Shown: positions 3,263 through 19,036 of the stretch, piece after piece
How the letters are laid out: each line of letters starts with the position of its first letter
Numbering within the stretch: the stretch's first letter is position 1
Assembly (NCBI GenBank): GCA_022486625.1
Contig: JAKVKH010000021.1
Span: 1,008 to 65,007 of the forward strand
Source of the DNA: Butyrivibrio sp.
Lineage (GTDB): Bacteria; Bacillota; Clostridia; Lachnospirales; Lachnospiraceae
Direction of reading: 5' to 3'
DNA: 64,000 nt
Program-made: the position numbers and the translations under genes
Notes under the pieces: generated by a model
What the model saw: only the letters and a program-made list of their open reading frames with translations
Databases searched by the model: none
Told to the model about the DNA's origin: nothing

Positions 3263-3368
3263 AATGTTGCATAATCTCCCTGATGCTCTGGTGCCCGAAA
3301 TTTAATCGTGATTATATTTATCTTACTGCAGATAGAAGATTTATGCTATAAAAAATATGGAACAGTTC

Positions 3369-8160: not shown

Positions 8161-8233
<73 letters not shown>

Positions 8234-11899: not shown

Positions 11900-13150
11900 T
11901 CATATTTTATCATTAATTGCATGAATAAATAACCCACTAAGAAGTTTTGGTTCAAACCAGGTAGATTTCGGCGGCATCAGTCTGCCGGCATCCGCTACGG
12001 CAAACAGTTCATGAATGGATGTCGGGAACATTGCAAATGCAACTCTCATATCTTCATGGCATCTGCGCTCCAGTTCAGAAAGTCCGCGAATTCCACCGAT
12101 AAAGTCAATTCTCTCATCTGTTCTGGGATCGCCGATTCCAAGTACCGGACCAAGAAGTTCATTTTGCAGCACGGAAACGTCAAGTCCGTCCACCGCATCG
12201 TCTTTCCGAATGTCTTCATGTGCTTTCAGAAGATACCAGTGCTCATCCAGATACATGCCAAACATTCCTTTTCCTTCCGGCTTTACCGGGCTGTTCTGCA
12301 TTTTCATCACATCAAATTTTGCAGAAATCTTCTTCATAAATGTTTCTGTATCAAGACCGTTTAAATCTTTCACCACGCGGTTATAGTCCATGATCATCAA
12401 CTGGGAATCCGGAAAAAGGACAGAGAGAAAAAAGTCATATTCCTTCTGCCCGGTCGGATGCATATCCTGCGCTCTTCTGGACAGCCCGACCTTCACTGCG
12501 GAAGCACATCTGTGATGCCCGTCCGCAATATATATTTCCTGCATCCCGGCAAACGCATTCTGTAAAAGACTGATATCTTCCTTATGATTCACGGCCCAGA
12601 TCCGGTTATGTACCTGATCGGATGAAGTAAATTCATAAAGCGTTTTCTGTGTATGACAGATTTTTTCCACACAGGCATCAATTACCCTGTTTTCCCTGTA
12701 ACAGAGGAAAATCGGTCCGGTCTGTGCATTGCATGCATCCACATGACGGATTCTGTCCTGTTCCTTTTCCTGTCTGGTATTCTCATGCTTCCTGATGACG
12801 CCGTTTATATAATCGTCAATTGCAGCACAGCCCACGATTCCCGTCTGTATCCGTCCATCCATGTTCTGTTCATAAATATAATATTCTGCAGTTTCATCCT
12901 GCTCAAAAGTGCCCTCTGCAATCCTGTCCCGGAGCATATCATGTGCTTTCTGATAAACCCGGTCTGCATACATGTCGCAGTCCGGTGCAAACTGTGTCTC
13001 CGGTCTGTCGATTGTCAGAAAGGACATGGGTTCACGCGCCGTTTCCTTTCGTGCCTCTTCTCTGTTATAAACATCATATGGAAGTGCTGCCACGCGGGAT
13101 GCATATGCACCCTGCGGACGGATTGCCTTAAACGGTCTGATCTGTGCCAT
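11900..13150 (-). CDS. DUF1015 family protein (ParB/Srx-like)
   Basis: MAQIRPFKA start after an AGGAG SD; PYDV, HENT, IADGHHR, MPPKSTWFEPK motifs. Confidence 0.88.
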   Translation of the reverse strand: MAQIRPFKAIRPQGAYASRVAALPYDVYNREEARKETAREPMSFLTIDRPETQFAPDCDMYADRVYQKAHDMLRDRIAEGTFEQDETAEYYIYEQNMDGRIQTGIVGCAAIDDYINGVIRKHENTRQEKEQDRIRHVDACNAQTGPIFLCYRENRVIDACVEKICHTQKTLYEFTSSDQVHNRIWAVNHKEDISLLQNAFAGMQEIYIADGHHRCASAVKVGLSRRAQDMHPTGQKEYDFFLSVLFPDSQLMIMDYNRVVKDLNGLDTETFMKKISAKFDVMKMQNSPVKPEGKGMFGMYLDEHWYLLKAHEDIRKDDAVDGLDVSVLQNELLGPVLGIGDPRTDERIDFIGGIRGLSELERRCHEDMRVAFAMFPTSIHELFAVADAGRLMPPKSTWFEPKLLSGLFIHAINDKI

Positions 13151-13195
13151 AACTTTTTCTCCTTTGTGTAAGTAGTGTCCGTATACAGTCGGAAA

Positions 13196-13220
13196 GGGCA
13201 GCCACAAACTGTGACTGCCC
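13196..13220 (-). terminator. Hairpin between serA and DUF1015 (weak terminator or stability element)
   Basis: GGGCAG..CTGCCC stem with only a short T tract. Confidence 0.4.
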
Positions 13221-13252: not shown

Positions 13253-14422
13253 TCAGAATGCCTTTCTGATTACTCTGACGCGGTATACACCGTCGATCTT
13301 TGAAAGCTTCTTTACAAGTTCATCTGTAATGTCCTTTTCGCAGTCGATCATGGTATATGCCACATCTCCTCTGGACTTATTGGTCATATCAGAAATGTTA
13401 TAACCTGCTCCGCCGATTTCGTTGGTGAACTGGCTGATCATGTTGGCAATATTTTTATGGAAAATAGCGATTCTGGGCTTTGTGCAGATTCCCATATCGC
13501 AGTTCGGATAATTCACACTGTTACTAATATTACCATTTTCAAGATAATTCATCATCTCAATAACTGCCTTGACTGCACAGTTATCCTCGGACTCCTCTGT
13601 GGAAGCGCCCAGATGCGGAATTACGATGCAGCCGTCATGACCTGCTATTGTAGCGTTCGGGAAATCCGTTACATACTTGCGAATCTTACCGGAATTGATA
13701 CCGGCCAGAACATCTGCCTCGTTCGCAAGAATATCTCTTGCCAGATTCAGAAGGATGACACCCTTTTTCATCTTTGCAATTGCTTCTGCATTGATCATGC
13801 CCTTTGTGGCATCCATTGCAGGTACATGAATGGTAATGATATCGCACTTGGAATAGATATCATCAACATTGGTGACATGCTTGACATCACTGGAAAGGCT
13901 CCATGCCGCATCTACTGACAGGTAGGGATCATAGCCGTATACATCCATGCCAAGATTCTTGGCTGCGTTGGCAACACGGACACCGATAGCACCAAGGCCG
14001 ATGATTCCGAGCTTTTTACCCATGATTTCAGTTCCTGCGAACTTCTTCTTGGATTTCTCCGTCAGCTTTGCAATATCCGGATCTCCGGCATTTGCCTTTA
14101 CCCATTCCACGCCGCCGATGATGTCACGGGAAGCCAGCAGCATTGCCGCCAGTACCATTTCCTTTACGCCGTTTGCATTTGCTCCCGGTGTATTGAAAAC
14201 CACGATACCTTTTTCCGCGCACTTCTCAAGCGGAATATTGTTGACACCGGCACCGGCACGTGCGATGCACATGAGCTTATCCGAGAACTCCATATCCAGC
14301 ATGTTGGCACTTCTGACCAGAATGCCTTCTGCCTCGTCCACATCATCTACAGCACTGAACTGATCGGAAAAATTATTCAGACCGATCTTTGCGATCGGAT
14401 TTAAGCATTTATACTGATACAT
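13253..14422 (-). CDS. serA: D-3-phosphoglycerate dehydrogenase with C-terminal ACT domain
   Basis: RAGAGVNNIP, LGIIGLGAIG, PHLGASTEESE; downstream of serC. Confidence 0.93.
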   Translation of the reverse strand: MYQYKCLNPIAKIGLNNFSDQFSAVDDVDEAEGILVRSANMLDMEFSDKLMCIARAGAGVNNIPLEKCAEKGIVVFNTPGANANGVKEMVLAAMLLASRDIIGGVEWVKANAGDPDIAKLTEKSKKKFAGTEIMGKKLGIIGLGAIGVRVANAAKNLGMDVYGYDPYLSVDAAWSLSSDVKHVTNVDDIYSKCDIITIHVPAMDATKGMINAEAIAKMKKGVILLNLARDILANEADVLAGINSGKIRKYVTDFPNATIAGHDGCIVIPHLGASTEESEDNCAVKAVIEMMNYLENGNISNSVNYPNCDMGICTKPRIAIFHKNIANMISQFTNEIGGAGYNISDMTNKSRGDVAYTMIDCEKDITDELVKKLSKIDGVYRVRVIRKAF

Positions 14423-14437
14423 ATCTTTATCTCCTCT

Positions 14438-15520
14438 TTACTGGTTGTTTTTCTCAAATTCTTCCATGAATGCAACAAGCTTTGCCACACCTTCCTTCGG
14501 CATTGCATTGTAAATGCTGGCTCTCATACCGCCTACGGTTCTGTGTCCCTTAAGGCTTACAAAACCTGCTTTTGTTGCTTCTGCAATGAACTTTGCATTC
14601 AGTTCGTCACTGTCTGTGACAAACGGTACGTTCATAAGAGAACGGTCTTCCTTGCGGACAGTACCCTTGAACATATTGCTCTGATCAAGGAAATCATAAA
14701 GGATGGCTGCCTTCTCTTCATTTCTCTTCTTCATCTCGGAAAGACCGCCCTGTGCCTTCAGCCATTTAAATACCAGACCGCACATGTAAATACTCCAGCA
14801 GTTCGGTGTGTTATATAAAGATCCGTTGTCCGCCTGTGTCTTGAACTTCAGCATCGTCGGGCAAAACGGCATGACATCATCACGGATCAGATCCTCACGG
14901 ATAATACTGATTACCATACCTGCAGGACCCACATTCTTCTGCACGCCGCCGTAGATGATGCCATATTTGGAAACATCCACAGGCTCGGACAGGAAGCAGG
15001 AGGAAACATCTGCAACAAGATCATGCCCCTTTGTATTCGGGAGTGTATGGAACTTCGTCCCGTAAATCGTATTATTCTCACAGATATAAACATAATCCGC
15101 ATCCGCCGGAATATCCAGATCAGAACAGTCCGGAATATATGAGAAGGTCTTATCGGCACTTGATGCAACTGCAATCGCTTCGCCATACTTCTGTGCTTCC
15201 TGATAAGCTTTCTTTGCCCACTGACCGGTAATCACATACGCAGCCTTCTTATTCTTCATCAGGTTCATCGGAATTGCAGCAAACTGCTGACTCGCACCGC
15301 CCTGAAGGAAAAGCACCTTATAATTGTCCGGAATATTCATCAGATCACGGATATCCTGCTCTGCTGTCTGAATCACACTGTCAAAGGTCTTGGAACGATG
15401 ACTCATCTCATTGATTGACATTCCGCATCCCTGATAATCAAGCATCTCGCTCGCTGCCTGTTTCAAAACCTCTTCCGGTAAAACTGCCGGACCTGCTGAA
15501 AAATTATAAACTCGTGACAT
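14438..15520 (-). CDS. serC: Phosphoserine aminotransferase
   Basis: YNFSAGPAVLP, GGVQKNVGPAG (PLP Lys), GHRTVGGMRASIYNA. Confidence 0.97.
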   Translation of the reverse strand: MSRVYNFSAGPAVLPEEVLKQAASEMLDYQGCGMSINEMSHRSKTFDSVIQTAEQDIRDLMNIPDNYKVLFLQGGASQQFAAIPMNLMKNKKAAYVITGQWAKKAYQEAQKYGEAIAVASSADKTFSYIPDCSDLDIPADADYVYICENNTIYGTKFHTLPNTKGHDLVADVSSCFLSEPVDVSKYGIIYGGVQKNVGPAGMVISIIREDLIRDDVMPFCPTMLKFKTQADNGSLYNTPNCWSIYMCGLVFKWLKAQGGLSEMKKRNEEKAAILYDFLDQSNMFKGTVRKEDRSLMNVPFVTDSDELNAKFIAEATKAGFVSLKGHRTVGGMRASIYNAMPKEGVAKLVAFMEEFEKNNQ

Positions 15521-15570
15521 TTCCTCTTCCTCCTGATTCGCAAAAAGAACTGTTTCAAAACTTATTTTTC

Positions 15571-15598
15571 ATTCTATTCCTATTTCATTTTTTGTCAA
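15571..15598 (-). promoter_or_regulatory. Proximal sigma70 promoter of serC
   Basis: TTGACA-N16-TAGAAT. Confidence 0.55.
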
Positions 15599-15729
15599 TA
15601 TCGTCATTTCATAATTAATGTTATTTTATTTTTTAAAATGTAAATATTGCCAGTTTTATTTTTTCGTTTTTGTCTATTTTTTAATTTTATATTGCATACT
15701 TATTCTCGTTATGCATAAAAAATATTAAT

Positions 15730-15758
15730 TTTATAATGTATTTAACAGTATTTATCAA
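15730..15758 (-). promoter_or_regulatory. Possible distal sigma70 promoter of serC
   Basis: TTGATA-N17-TATAAA in an AT-rich stretch. Confidence 0.4.
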
Positions 15759-15978
15759 TTTCAGGTTGCCGATCATGATGTATTTTATTCATTTCTCTTT
15801 TTCTTGTATTTCTATTTTTCGATCTGTCATTATACAATTATCATCCACATTTTCTGACATCTTTTTCAGATTTTTCTTTGCTGTTTTTTCAAAAAAATTC
15901 AATTATAAAGTAACCATACTCAAGAACCAGGCATTCATCTTCTCCCGCCTCTTCTGCCACTTAAAAGAGACGACAAAA

Positions 15979-15997
15979 GAACCCGCTTCGCGGGTTC
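15979..15997 (-). terminator. Intrinsic terminator closing the leuB...GT2/GtrA unit and the structured element
   Basis: GAACCCGC-GAA-GCGGGTTC followed by TTTTG on the minus strand. Confidence 0.75.
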
Positions 15998-16405
15998 CGC
16001 AATACAAAACAGCAGCCATGCTCATTTTCAAGCCATGACTGCCGTTCCAATATCCATACAATATTCAATCCATCCAGATTCACAACACCAGCGGGAACAG
16101 CGAAGCGCCTTCCCGTACTATCTCCACACAAGTCAGCGGGAACAGCGAAGCGCCTTCCCACGTCCCTGCCGCGAAGTCCGTGTCGCAAAACACAACCAGG
16201 AATGCGGTTCATCACCGGACGCGCCCATGGAAACGGAGGCGAAACGATTTGCAACAAGCCGCCCCTCTGCAGGCGCCGGTACTTGCGCCGCGTCCTCCAG
16301 CGGTGCTTAGTACCGCTGCGACCTGCAGCGGAGCGAAAGCGCGGCGGCGGATGCAAACGTTTTGCCAAAGGCCCACAGGCTCACCTGTCCTCCGCCGCAT
16401 TCCGT
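15998..16405 (-). ncRNA. Candidate structured non-coding element (ncRNA or REP/MITE-like)
   Basis: GC-rich island with many nested inverted repeats, no credible ORF, terminator at the 3' end; strand is inferred from the terminator. Confidence 0.45.
16089..16159. repeat. Two identical 26-bp palindromic direct repeats, 19-bp spacer
   Basis: CAGCGGGAACAGCGAAGCGCCTTCCC at 16089-16114 and 16134-16159. Confidence 0.95.
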
Positions 16406-16408
16406 CCC

Positions 16409-17500
16409 CTACTTATACACGAACTCGCGGCAAAAGTAATAACTGAAGAAGAAAAGGCAGAAGTCAACCGGAATCTTGAAAAGAACTTCCGGTCCGCCAA
16501 TCAGCCAGTGCAGGAGCGAAACCGCTGCCGCGCTCATTGCCATCTGCACAATGCAGAGCATAACCCACCTGGCAAACGAAGCTGTCTGTGAACTACGTGT
16601 TCGGAATACAATCCGGTAGTTCAGACGGTAATTCACTGTTGCAGAAAAGACACGTGCCGTTGCCGTTGCAAGTGCAACATATAACTGTGTTTTTTCCAGT
16701 ACGCTTACACCGTCATATATATTGCAGAATACCGTAAACAGAATCAGATCGACAACACTTGCCACCAGTGACGTATAAATATATGCCGCAAAAGACAGAT
16801 AAATCGGAAGATTATCCTTCAGTGTCCGTAAATGTGTCAGATTTCTTCTTGCAGAATATCTGGTCTTTAAATTCACTTCTCTGACACTGACAGAATATTT
16901 CTTACAATTAATCAGTGTGTTTGTGTCAAACTCATACCGCTCTCCTCTGACATTCATGAGTTTTTTCATATAGGCTGCCGGAATTCCGCGAAGACCTGAC
17001 TGTGCATCCGTTACCATGATCCCGACCAGATAATGAAATGACAGCTGCAGTACCTTGTTTCCAATTCTCGATTTTCTGGGCATTGATGTCGCATCAAGTA
17101 TTCTTTTTCCCAGAATCAGATCTGTCGGATGCTCAATCAGTTCATTCATCACCGCCAGTATGTCCTCTACAGGAAAACTCCCTCTGCAGTCCATCGTCAC
17201 GCAACCGACTGCATCTGTCTGCTCGCACAGAATCAGATTAAATGCGCTTTTCAGTGCTCTGCCTTTTCCCATATTTACCACATGTCTGATTACACAGCAC
17301 CCGTATGTTTCCTGGGCTGTTCTGAAAATATTCTGATATTGTTCCCCGCTCCCGTCATCAACAACAATAATATTATTTATATTATTCTGCTTCAAACGCT
17401 CAATCAGGCTGATCAGTTCTTCATCCGGCTGATATGCCGGAATAACAATTGGAAACCGATTATATACCGCTGATTCTTTTTTCATTTCTCTCAGTTCCAT
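16409..17500 (-). CDS. Bifunctional GT2 glycosyltransferase / GtrA-family protein
   Basis: IVIPAYQP, VVDDGSG, NMGKGRALK, DAQSGLRG, then a 4-TM GtrA-like C-terminus. Confidence 0.88.
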   Translation of the reverse strand: MELREMKKESAVYNRFPIVIPAYQPDEELISLIERLKQNNINNIIVVDDGSGEQYQNIFRTAQETYGCCVIRHVVNMGKGRALKSAFNLILCEQTDAVGCVTMDCRGSFPVEDILAVMNELIEHPTDLILGKRILDATSMPRKSRIGNKVLQLSFHYLVGIMVTDAQSGLRGIPAAYMKKLMNVRGERYEFDTNTLINCKKYSVSVREVNLKTRYSARRNLTHLRTLKDNLPIYLSFAAYIYTSLVASVVDLILFTVFCNIYDGVSVLEKTQLYVALATATARVFSATVNYRLNYRIVFRTRSSQTASFARWVMLCIVQMAMSAAAVSLLHWLIGGPEVLFKIPVDFCLFFFSYYFCREFVYK

Positions 17501-17536: not shown

Positions 17537-19036
17537 TCAGTCAAACAGGACAACCGGAGTTCCGATCTGCACCATCTGATATAATCTCCTGATCTGTTTT
17601 TCCGGACCGTTGATACATCCATGTGAACCTCCGGCTTCATAAATCTCCCCGCCGAATTCATCTCTCCATGAAGCATCATGGATTCCAACTCCCTTATAGA
17701 CTGCCATCCAGTAATGAACAAAAGAGGCATAGCCCTGACCTCTCAGAACTCTGTCTCTTGCTTTTGAATAAATATAGTATACACCCTCCGGTGTACTCCT
17801 GTGTTTTTTAATATTTCCAGTCACGACAGGCATTGTAATTACCAGCCTGCTTTCTTCATAATAGTATAGCCGCTGCTCACCCATATCGATTTCAATGTAG
17901 GTATTCCCGATATCATTACTTCCTGTTGCCCTTGCCTGTTTGCTGAACTCAGGTGTATGTCTCTCCTTTTTATGTGCGATAAGCGCATTTTTGAGATACA
18001 CAAACTCCCCTGGAAGATCAATGGCATTGCCATACGTACCGCCACTGATATTCACCATTCTGCCACTTGTCGCAGAAAAATTTCTTGTCTTCCCAACTGT
18101 ATTATATGGCTCACAGATCTTCTGGAGATCTGCGTACATTGCAGACTCACTGACCAGGAGATTTCCCTCTGCATCTGTCGCAAAACCGTTTTCACTGCGT
18201 GCATCAGATGGAAACCGGATTTCTTTTCCTGCTGCCAGGAACCAACCGCTCCCCGGTTTATTTCCGCTGACTTCCTCTGCCTGTGCCTGCTTCATCTGCT
18301 GTTCGGTCACAATCCATCCGGAAACAACTGATGCCGACACCTCCGTCTGTTCATCTCCAAACACGTAGATCACATCAAAATCCTGCAATTTCTGCAGTTT
18401 ATCCGCAGTTTTCATTATCGACTGCATCAGGTCTGTTTTTTCCAGATTTTTATAACAGTCACTGTCCGTCTGCAGCTGCAGTTCCGTATTCAGAGACATA
18501 AGTGCATTCTGTACTGCTTCTGTAACCTTGCTCTTTACTGGCACATTTTCGGTAGTATCCTGCAATTCGTAACCGTTTTTACCATGAACTATAGTTACAT
18601 CTCTCTTATTATCCTGAAGTGCAAACAGACTCCATCCGGAAATAATTCCATCCAGCTGATCTCTGTCGTACGTCACAACCGGCAGTACCGTATGCTGCCT
18701 GCCAATAAACAGATTCACACCCCAGGCAAACGGATTCTGCTGATCCATATATGTCTGAAGCGTTTGTGTATAATCTGCTCTCAGATTGATTTCTGAAGGA
18801 CTGATCTGATATACACTGCCATCCGCCGCTGTCACCTTAAGACCGTCATAAGTATTTTTTTTCATCAGAAGCACATTTACTTCTGATGCACTTTTTCCGG
18901 TACAATAAATCCCATTAATCCATGTACCATAAGAAAAACCATCAGCATAATATAACGACAGCATCAGATAGCCGGTCAAAAGTACCAGCAGTGCAGTCAA
19001 CATGATCATCCACAGCCATTTGCAGGCAGTTCTCAT
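17537..19036 (-). CDS. L,D-transpeptidase (YkuD family) with N-terminal anchor and PG-binding region
   Basis: YIEIDMGEQRLYYY, TPEGVY, GIHDASWR, GSHGCIN catalytic motif. Confidence 0.92.
   Translation of the reverse strand: MRTACKWLWMIMLTALLVLLTGYLMLSLYYADGFSYGTWINGIYCTGKSASEVNVLLMKKNTYDGLKVTAADGSVYQISPSEINLRADYTQTLQTYMDQQNPFAWGVNLFIGRQHTVLPVVTYDRDQLDGIISGWSLFALQDNKRDVTIVHGKNGYELQDTTENVPVKSKVTEAVQNALMSLNTELQLQTDSDCYKNLEKTDLMQSIMKTADKLQKLQDFDVIYVFGDEQTEVSASVVSGWIVTEQQMKQAQAEEVSGNKPGSGWFLAAGKEIRFPSDARSENGFATDAEGNLLVSESAMYADLQKICEPYNTVGKTRNFSATSGRMVNISGGTYGNAIDLPGEFVYLKNALIAHKKERHTPEFSKQARATGSNDIGNTYIEIDMGEQRLYYYEESRLVITMPVVTGNIKKHRSTPEGVYYIYSKARDRVLRGQGYASFVHYWMAVYKGVGIHDASWRDEFGGEIYEAGGSHGCINGPEKQIRRLYQMVQIGTPVVLFD

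Follow-up and report, generated by a model that had tools for sequence, protein, structure and literature searches.

Bacterial MITEs that fold into hairpins include Correia/NEMIS in Neisseria, ERIC/IRU in enterobacteria, RUP and BOX in Streptococcus pneumoniae, and Bcr1 in Bacillus cereus. Such elements are non-coding imperfect palindromes of 100-400 bp with perfect terminal inverted repeats. They are present in one genome and absent from a close relative, occupy the space that separates a stop codon from a terminator, and are co-transcribed into the mRNA; the locus described here would resemble them in these respects. Repetitive extragenic palindromes (REP, BIME, and REPIN sequences) were described in, for example, Escherichia, Pseudomonas, and Stenotrophomonas (PMC2817692, PMC3337134, PMC3733652). 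Those located downstream of genes were described as plausibly transcribed RNA elements, and the CGTC and GTAG super-families were characterized by an unpaired head tag, a stem of 8-9 bp, a loop of 4-5 nt, and, in the CGTC type, a CCA tail (PMC3733652). Firmicutes and Clostridia are not mentioned in this 2013 survey (PMC3733652). A literature search on MITEs in Lachnospiraceae returned nothing relevant.

Of the GC-rich islands in the 64-kb stretch of DNA that was analyzed (the window), the paired region described here alone is non-coding, since the three others all lie within long ORFs. The window is a syntenic housekeeping region, and the paired region occupies the first 430 nt of the ~890 non-coding bases that separate a bifunctional GT2/GtrA glycosyltransferase gene from the downstream serC-serA-DUF1015 genes (Table 1). 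The GC content of the region peaks at 0.65-0.67, compared to a window mean of 0.453, and the folding of 15970-16410 surpasses that of dinucleotide shuffles on both strands (z = -4.3 for the minus strand and -6.7 for the plus strand), in agreement with an earlier note on this DNA that had described ~430 bp of GC-rich, densely paired non-coding sequence. The region is probably (a probability of about 0.6) a composite of REP/MITE-like, hairpin-forming palindromic DNA insertions in the GT2/GtrA 3′ UTR of one uncultured Butyrivibrio-like species. Its overall appearance is that of REP/MITE-type junk or selfish DNA, not that of a conserved RNA gene.

On its downstream side, the region abuts a very AT-rich promoter region, as the note had also stated; this spacer contains a predicted promoter-like site ahead of serC (TTGACA-16-TAGAAT), with an 11/12 match to a sigma-70-like promoter. 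Leaders of serC and serA in Firmicutes often contain a riboswitch or a T-box; neither was found in the spacer by Rfam. The spacer, ~430 nt long, holds a 17-nt tandem repeat and is partly alignable to the sister species introduced below, and its counterpart is also AT-rich in two more distant relatives (L009 and L010). Elsewhere in the window, a tRNA gene (72 bits) lies between the MscS-like and argininosuccinate lyase genes.

Table 1. Positions of the features of the locus within the 64-kb window.
Feature	Position	Strand	Remarks
GT2/GtrA bifunctional glycosyltransferase gene	16409-17500	minus	Pfam PF00535 and PF04138; stop codon TAG at 16409-16411; sister orthologue 93-94% identical (aa)
GC-rich inserted block, 333 nt	16076-16408	minus	begins directly behind the stop codon; absent from sister and more distant relatives
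Long imperfect palindrome, 205 nt	16199-16403		closed by perfect 9-bp GGAATGCGG/CCGCATTCC
43-nt core of long hairpin	16307-16349		recurs on one other metagenome contig
26-nt exact direct repeat, first copy	16134-16159	minus	part of ~45-nt tandem unit; 22-nt hairpin at 16138-16159
26-nt exact direct repeat, second copy	16089-16114	minus	45 nt from first copy; 22-nt hairpin at 16093-16114
Ancestral 3′ UTR and intrinsic terminator	16006-16075	minus	94% identical to sister species; predicted terminator stem-loop at 16006-16048
36-nt unit, TTTTG-TATTGC-GGAACCCGC-GAA-GCGGGTTCC...TTTTG	15974-16009	minus	second, separate insertion; missing in sister genome L003; 21-nt hairpin at 15978-15998
CGTC (plus strand; CGTA in one unit)	15969-15972, 16160-16163, 16404-16407	plus	behind 3′ arms of palindrome and small hairpins
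AT-rich ancestral spacer	15501-15926	minus	17-25% GC; serC promoter-like site; outside insertion; alignable to L003
17-nt tandem repeat in spacer	15783-15819
Promoter-like site ahead of serC (predicted)	15598-15571
serC	14438-15520		downstream of GT2/GtrA
serA	13253-14422		downstream of GT2/GtrA
DUF1015 gene	11900-13207		downstream of GT2/GtrA; missing from L010 contig
YkuD L,D-transpeptidase gene	17537-19036		missing from L010 contig
tRNA gene	8161-8233	minus	sole Rfam match in window at gathering threshold
Helix GGAATGCGG/CCGCATTCC	16395-16403 / 16199-16207		perfect 9-bp inverted repeat
Helix GCGGCGGA/TCCGCCGC	16391-16398 / 16344-16351
Helix ACAGG/CCTGT	16384-16388 / 16375-16379
Helix GCAAA/TTTGC	16361-16365 / 16353-16357
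Helix CTGCAGG/CCTGCAG	16322-16328 / 16267-16273
Helix CAGCGGT/ACCGCTG	16312-16318 / 16298-16304
Helix GGACGCG/CGCGTCC	16289-16295 / 16217-16223

A search of the GT2/GtrA protein against species-representative genomes revealed one close relative, a MAG of an ‘uncultured Butyrivibrio sp.’ (L003), whose orthologue shares 94% amino acid identity. A second contig of the same species (L007) was found in a protein collection. Both align with the window at ~85.5% nucleotide identity over 5-7 kb (7.3 kb for the longest alignment), and both carry an empty site, in which the TAG stop continues straight into GGATGAATTT... / GGATGAATTTAATATTGTATGG... and 16076-16408 is absent. In pairwise alignment with L003, the empty-site junction lacks 333 nt, with a position that is ambiguous by 2 nt (GG) and BLAST segment ends at 16407 and 16075. 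Both contigs also lack the hairpin unit at 15974-16009. Empty sites were likewise observed in metagenomes: a sister-type contig of run X1 skips 333 nt between 16073 and 16407, and contigs of runs X5 and X3 pass from 16075 directly into the end of the sister's gene.

Three more distant orthologues, L008 (70% amino acid identity), L009 (69%), and L010 (61%), have no GC-rich element behind GT2/GtrA; the DNA at this position is AT-rich with simple terminators, and the gap between GT2/GtrA and serC is only 170 nt in L010. Because the GC-rich DNA is missing from these three relatives too, the 333-nt block and the 36-nt unit were inserted in the window lineage, not deleted in the sister. On this comparison of sequences, both are derived insertions that postdate the split from the sister species.

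The relatives differ among themselves at this site. L008 has a simple terminator (GACAACTCC...GGAGCTGTC followed by a T run) at ~3277-3310, behind the orthologous gene. In L009, an L008-like outer stem (GACAGCTCC...GGGGCTGTC followed by a T run) at ~2758-2862 contains ~80 nt of extra hairpin-forming DNA in its loop, apparently the result of a further insertion at the GT2/GtrA locus, this time within the terminator and unrelated to those in the window. The L010 contig has the gene order ilvB-GT2/GtrA-serC-serA-glgB, with ilvB and GT2/GtrA frames that overlap by 47 nt, and lacks the YkuD L,D-transpeptidase and DUF1015 genes of the otherwise syntenic window.

The 333-nt block immediately follows the GT2/GtrA stop codon and precedes the ancestral terminator. 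It consists of the 205-nt imperfect palindrome, a 36-nt linker, and a tandem pair of ~45-nt units that both contain a 22-nt hairpin. The two repeated hairpins of the earlier note correspond to exact 26-nt direct repeats, which form the structure GGGAAgGCG-CUU-CGCugUUCCC with a predicted folding energy of -14.5 kcal/mol. Together with the hairpin of the 36-nt unit, they are located between the GT2/GtrA stop and the serC promoter. All seven helices that the note had named are present (Table 1), though they cannot all form together: GGAATGCGG and GCGGCGGA share 4 nt, and GGACGCG sits within the CTGCAGG helix with its partner CGCGTCC outside, such that this pairing crosses that helix. The 205-nt hairpin has a minimum free energy of -108 kcal/mol on the minus strand and -111 kcal/mol on the plus strand (z = -3.3 and -6.0, respectively, compared to shuffles). 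G-U pairs account for 4 of the 72 predicted pairs, and the arms are ~63% alike overall. The scarcity of G-U pairs, with a plus strand that folds as well as or better than the minus strand, points to a DNA-level inverted repeat and not to an RNA shaped on one strand.

The earlier note had suggested looking for empty sites with target duplications in relatives; the empty site was found, but the duplication is just an 8/10 match. The candidate sequences, GGACGGAATG and GGATGGATTG, need one extra G to be aligned and overlap the closing stem of the hairpin, and a 10-bp target-site duplication of the 333-nt block is therefore doubtful and, on its sequence, unconvincing. The junction overlap that is certain amounts to 2 nt only. 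The closing stem of the 205-nt palindrome, together with its flanks, bears a slight likeness to a third small unit whose loop would hold 187 nt (p = 0.03-0.05); this similarity of the palindrome ends to the small repeat unit is a lead, not a finding. The CGTC motifs listed in Table 1 look like a tag; at the other end, ahead of the 5′ arm, the long palindrome and the small hairpin units have YCAG.

The earlier note had proposed an unannotated large structured RNA as one of two readings, and had seen no hallmark sequences of RNase P, tmRNA, T-box, or the common riboswitches. The latter observation was upheld. At the gathering threshold of Rfam 15, nothing in the element was matched in a search of the whole window. 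At E <= 10, a search of 15500-16700 gave no match inside 15979-16405 and three flanking matches, all below 19 bits. The families covered included riboswitches, T-box, RNase P, tmRNA, ribozymes, group I/II introns, OLE, ROOL, GOLLD, HEARO, raiA, and Clostridiales-1, among others. ARAGORN detected neither a tRNA nor a tmRNA in the element. The overlapping ORFs, which had been judged spurious-looking, indeed have no Pfam domain and no relatives: the joined six-frame translation of the element, which was meant to catch spurious ORFs called on other copies, had no match at E <= 10 in a set of 5.8 billion proteins. The structured-RNA proposal itself was not supported. An independent conserved RNA gene is unlikely on the grounds that the sister species (L003 and L007) and L008, L009, and L010 all lack the element at the orthologous position, that its pairing is strand-symmetric, and that neither an Rfam match nor a homologue was found. 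Retron, integron attC, and single-strand-origin readings were dropped too, as no reverse transcriptase, integrase, or plasmid gene lies nearby, and the size and loop motifs presumably do not fit.

The ancestral terminator is predicted to consist of the stem-loop at 16006-16048 followed by UUUUG (-23.5 kcal/mol, z = -6.3). The non-coding DNA at 16006-16075 shares 94% identity with the sister species, compared to ~85.5% for the neighbouring coding DNA, and is thus more conserved than the surrounding genes. Since the 333-nt block lies upstream of this conserved terminator, it is most likely transcribed as the 3′ UTR of the GT2/GtrA mRNA. The 36-nt unit adjoins the T run of the ancestral terminator, directly behind it. 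Its hairpin has nine pairs, six of them G-C, and a loop of 3 nt followed by TTTTG, a pattern recognized in a terminator scan, and the unit is predicted to be an added terminator-like hairpin. The strong terminator that the note had placed at the end of the region is present as a terminator-like hairpin with a T run, but it was inserted separately from the 333-nt block, and the ancestral terminator is flanked by these two insertions. The 36-nt unit is 77% similar (17/22) to the 26-nt repeats in inverted orientation, so related hairpins flank the ancestral terminator on both sides. The arrangement is reminiscent of tandem intrinsic terminators, in that a hairpin followed by UUUUG (15978-15998) stands directly behind the ancestral terminator; it differs from them in that this hairpin arrived as a repeat unit by insertion and did not evolve as part of the operon, and in that the sister manages with one terminator.

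The position of the insert within the transcription unit, upstream of a conserved terminator, and its very stable predicted structure would also be expected of a recently acquired functional RNA. Such an RNA would affect GT2/GtrA mRNA stability or act in trans, either as a structured element of the 3′ UTR or as a small RNA derived from it. REPs behind genes provide a precedent as plausibly transcribed RNA elements (PMC3733652), and the 333-nt block is fixed and identical in sequence in all runs that hold the species, from 2018 to 2025. However, the flanks are as invariant as the insert, and identity of the insert across runs is therefore uninformative with regard to selection. We consider a functional RNA improbable: its conservation is limited to one species, it has no Rfam match, its pairing is strand-symmetric with almost no G-U, the minus strand has no promoter-like site of its own, and the single RNA run that shares words of the locus has no coverage over 15800-16700.

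The 333-nt block was found in ~20 wastewater and bioreactor runs, always with its flanks. Contigs cross the element and both flanks unbroken at flat depth (11.8 in run X1, 11.3 in X2, and 11.4 in X3), and neither blastn-short nor pattern searches with 3 mismatches found a second copy in the window, which together indicate that the block is single-copy in its own genome. For each small unit, too, one copy was found in this genome. Searches of plasmids, phages, viral contigs, and the protein database yielded no near-full-length second copy of the block; a ‘distant’ blastn search gave no match to the element in plasmids and phages, and a degenerate hairpin pattern gave 10 matches in viral contigs, all by chance and in coding DNA.

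Parts of the region do recur in the metagenomes. In each run, 3-6 other contigs carry the 36-nt unit, which differs there by 2-4 mismatches and is embedded in unrelated sequence, and depth suggests ~4-7 copies in a co-occurring genome at the depth of the sister species. The 43-nt core of the palindrome has a counterpart on one further contig, from which it differs by 5 mismatches and a 1-nt gap and where it lies between different GC-rich flanks (TCCCGCAGGATACACACATACACCGCAGCT and ATGCGGCTGCGCCGGATGCTCCGCCCTCTC). In runs X3 and X5, the core was seen on contigs of 2374 and 448 nt and the 36-nt unit on contigs of 22, 1.8, and 1.4 kb. Depths in run X1 were 20.5 for the sister species, 18.2 for the 43-nt core contig, and 17.5-27.7 for the 36-nt unit contigs; the corresponding values were 27.6, 30, and 25-30 in X11, 64.3, 66.5, and 52-70 in X5, and 59.1, 66.7, and 41-53 in X3. 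Based on this depth correlation alone, the other copies of both parts appear to belong to the sister genome, which would then have an empty site at this locus, ~4-7 small-unit copies, and one relative of the palindrome core elsewhere. In runs X2 and X4, where no sister-type contig was seen, no extra contig matched 16040-16425, and none matched the 36-nt unit in X4; run X2 is uninformative for the 36-nt stretch, as not even the species' own contig gave a match. A metagenome scan with an exact flank of the other 43-nt core contig (GGATACACACATACACCGCAGCT) gave no matches, and a scan with a flank common to the other hairpin copies (ATGCAATGGCAGTYCRTYT) gave 57, all by chance and none beside a hairpin. 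The other copies of the 36-nt unit (X1, X3, X5, and X11) share further flanking sequence, with ...(A/C)TGCAATGGCAGTYCRTYT at one end and a GTTGCTG-like motif at the opposite end; the repeat of the presumed sister genome therefore extends beyond the portion it has in common with the window.

These observations bear on a rather unlikely alternative, according to which a foreign or paralogous scrap was captured once by illegitimate recombination or repair, or was built by template-switching and slippage, with neither transposition nor function. A block that is single-copy at flat depth, has no clean target duplication and no transposase within 64 kb, stands ~20 points above the genome in GC content, has an internal 45-nt tandem duplication, and has just 43 nt in common with another locus would be compatible with such an origin. 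It is less easily reconciled with a small hairpin unit that forms a dispersed multi-copy family elsewhere, or with the perfect 9-bp terminal inverted repeat that ends the block. Moreover, two independent, related hairpin insertions flank one terminator, which suggests a targeting process and not a single accident.

No transposase or RAYT (Y1 transposase) gene was found among the ~50 ORFs of the window. Together with the single copy and the doubtful 8/10 target duplication, this leaves the mobile reading unproven. The miniature mobile or REP-like element that the earlier note had offered as its second reading is the better supported of the two, by the empty site, the dispersed small hairpin, and the occurrence of the 43-nt core elsewhere, but not by copy number or a transposase. 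IS200/IS605-type elements leave GC-rich structured non-coding ends, and the region might be a decayed end of this type, either a palindrome-associated element or the leftover scaffold of an omega RNA after deletion of tnpA/tnpB. Related subterminal hairpins, the lack of a clear target duplication, and insertion beside a hairpin are in line with this origin, which we nevertheless regard as very improbable, given that no trace of tnpA or tnpB was detected in any frame, no such gene is present in the window, and the HEARO and IS605-orfB motifs of Rfam had no match at E <= 10.

Compared to the described systems, the small hairpins resemble REP/BIME sequences in being short (20-40 nt), GC-rich, extragenic, downstream of a gene, clustered, present in both orientations, and probably transcribed (PMC2817692, PMC3733652), and a related genome appears to contain several scattered copies of the 36-nt unit. 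However, one copy per genome is found here and ~4-7 in the sister, whereas REPs number tens to thousands. The units also differ from the REP super-families in having no GTAG and loops of 3 nt, not 4-5, and they read YCAG-stem-loop-stem-CGTC/CGTA on the plus strand, with tag and tail ends swapped relative to the published CGTC REPs. Finally, the window has no RAYT, and the host is a Firmicute. As in MITEs, the 205-bp palindrome has terminal inverted repeats (the perfect 9-bp GGAATGCGG/CCGCATTCC) and the insertion is present or absent between relatives, but multiple copies were not found for the 333-bp block, of which the 43-nt core alone recurs. The palindrome further differs from MITEs in that it is single-copy, has no known parent insertion sequence, and has a GC content far above that of the host. 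By its sequence features, the region would best be filed as a new sequence within the broad class of intergenic palindromic insertions, and as ordinary in kind.

A more specific version, to which we assign a low probability, is that Lachnospiraceae harbour an undescribed mobile family of REP-like units, which would target intrinsic terminators and be able to nest in itself. Three observations bear on this possibility: the related units flank the ancestral terminator in opposite orientation, TTTTG stands at either end of the 36-nt unit as though the T run of the terminator had been duplicated, and the ends of the 205-nt palindrome show the weak likeness to a small unit mentioned above. If true, this would add a transposase-in-trans, 3′-UTR-rewriting element to a phylum in which REP-type repeats are hardly described.

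Under the preferred reading, that of a composite of REP/MITE-like insertions, the pieces would be non-autonomous or decayed mobile DNA, either mobilized in trans or derived by copying of a locus elsewhere in the genus. The 333-nt block would be co-transcribed in the GT2/GtrA mRNA, upstream of the conserved terminator, and its stable stem-loops would have no more than a generic effect, by blocking 3′ exonucleases or by being cut by double-strand RNases. The additional hairpin, followed by a U run, might serve as a back-up terminator that insulates the serC promoter.

The locus is chiefly a cautionary example, in that a strongly folding, GC-rich non-coding island of 430 nt within an AT-rich genome mimics a new large RNA, and one comparison with a sister genome reveals a lineage-specific palindromic insertion. 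It provides a clean pair of filled and empty sites for the study of the effects of insertions on 3′ UTRs and terminators, and the insertion serves as a species marker in metagenomes. It is also a record of hairpin DNA of the REP/MITE-like kind from a Lachnospiraceae lineage that is uncultured and lives in wastewater.
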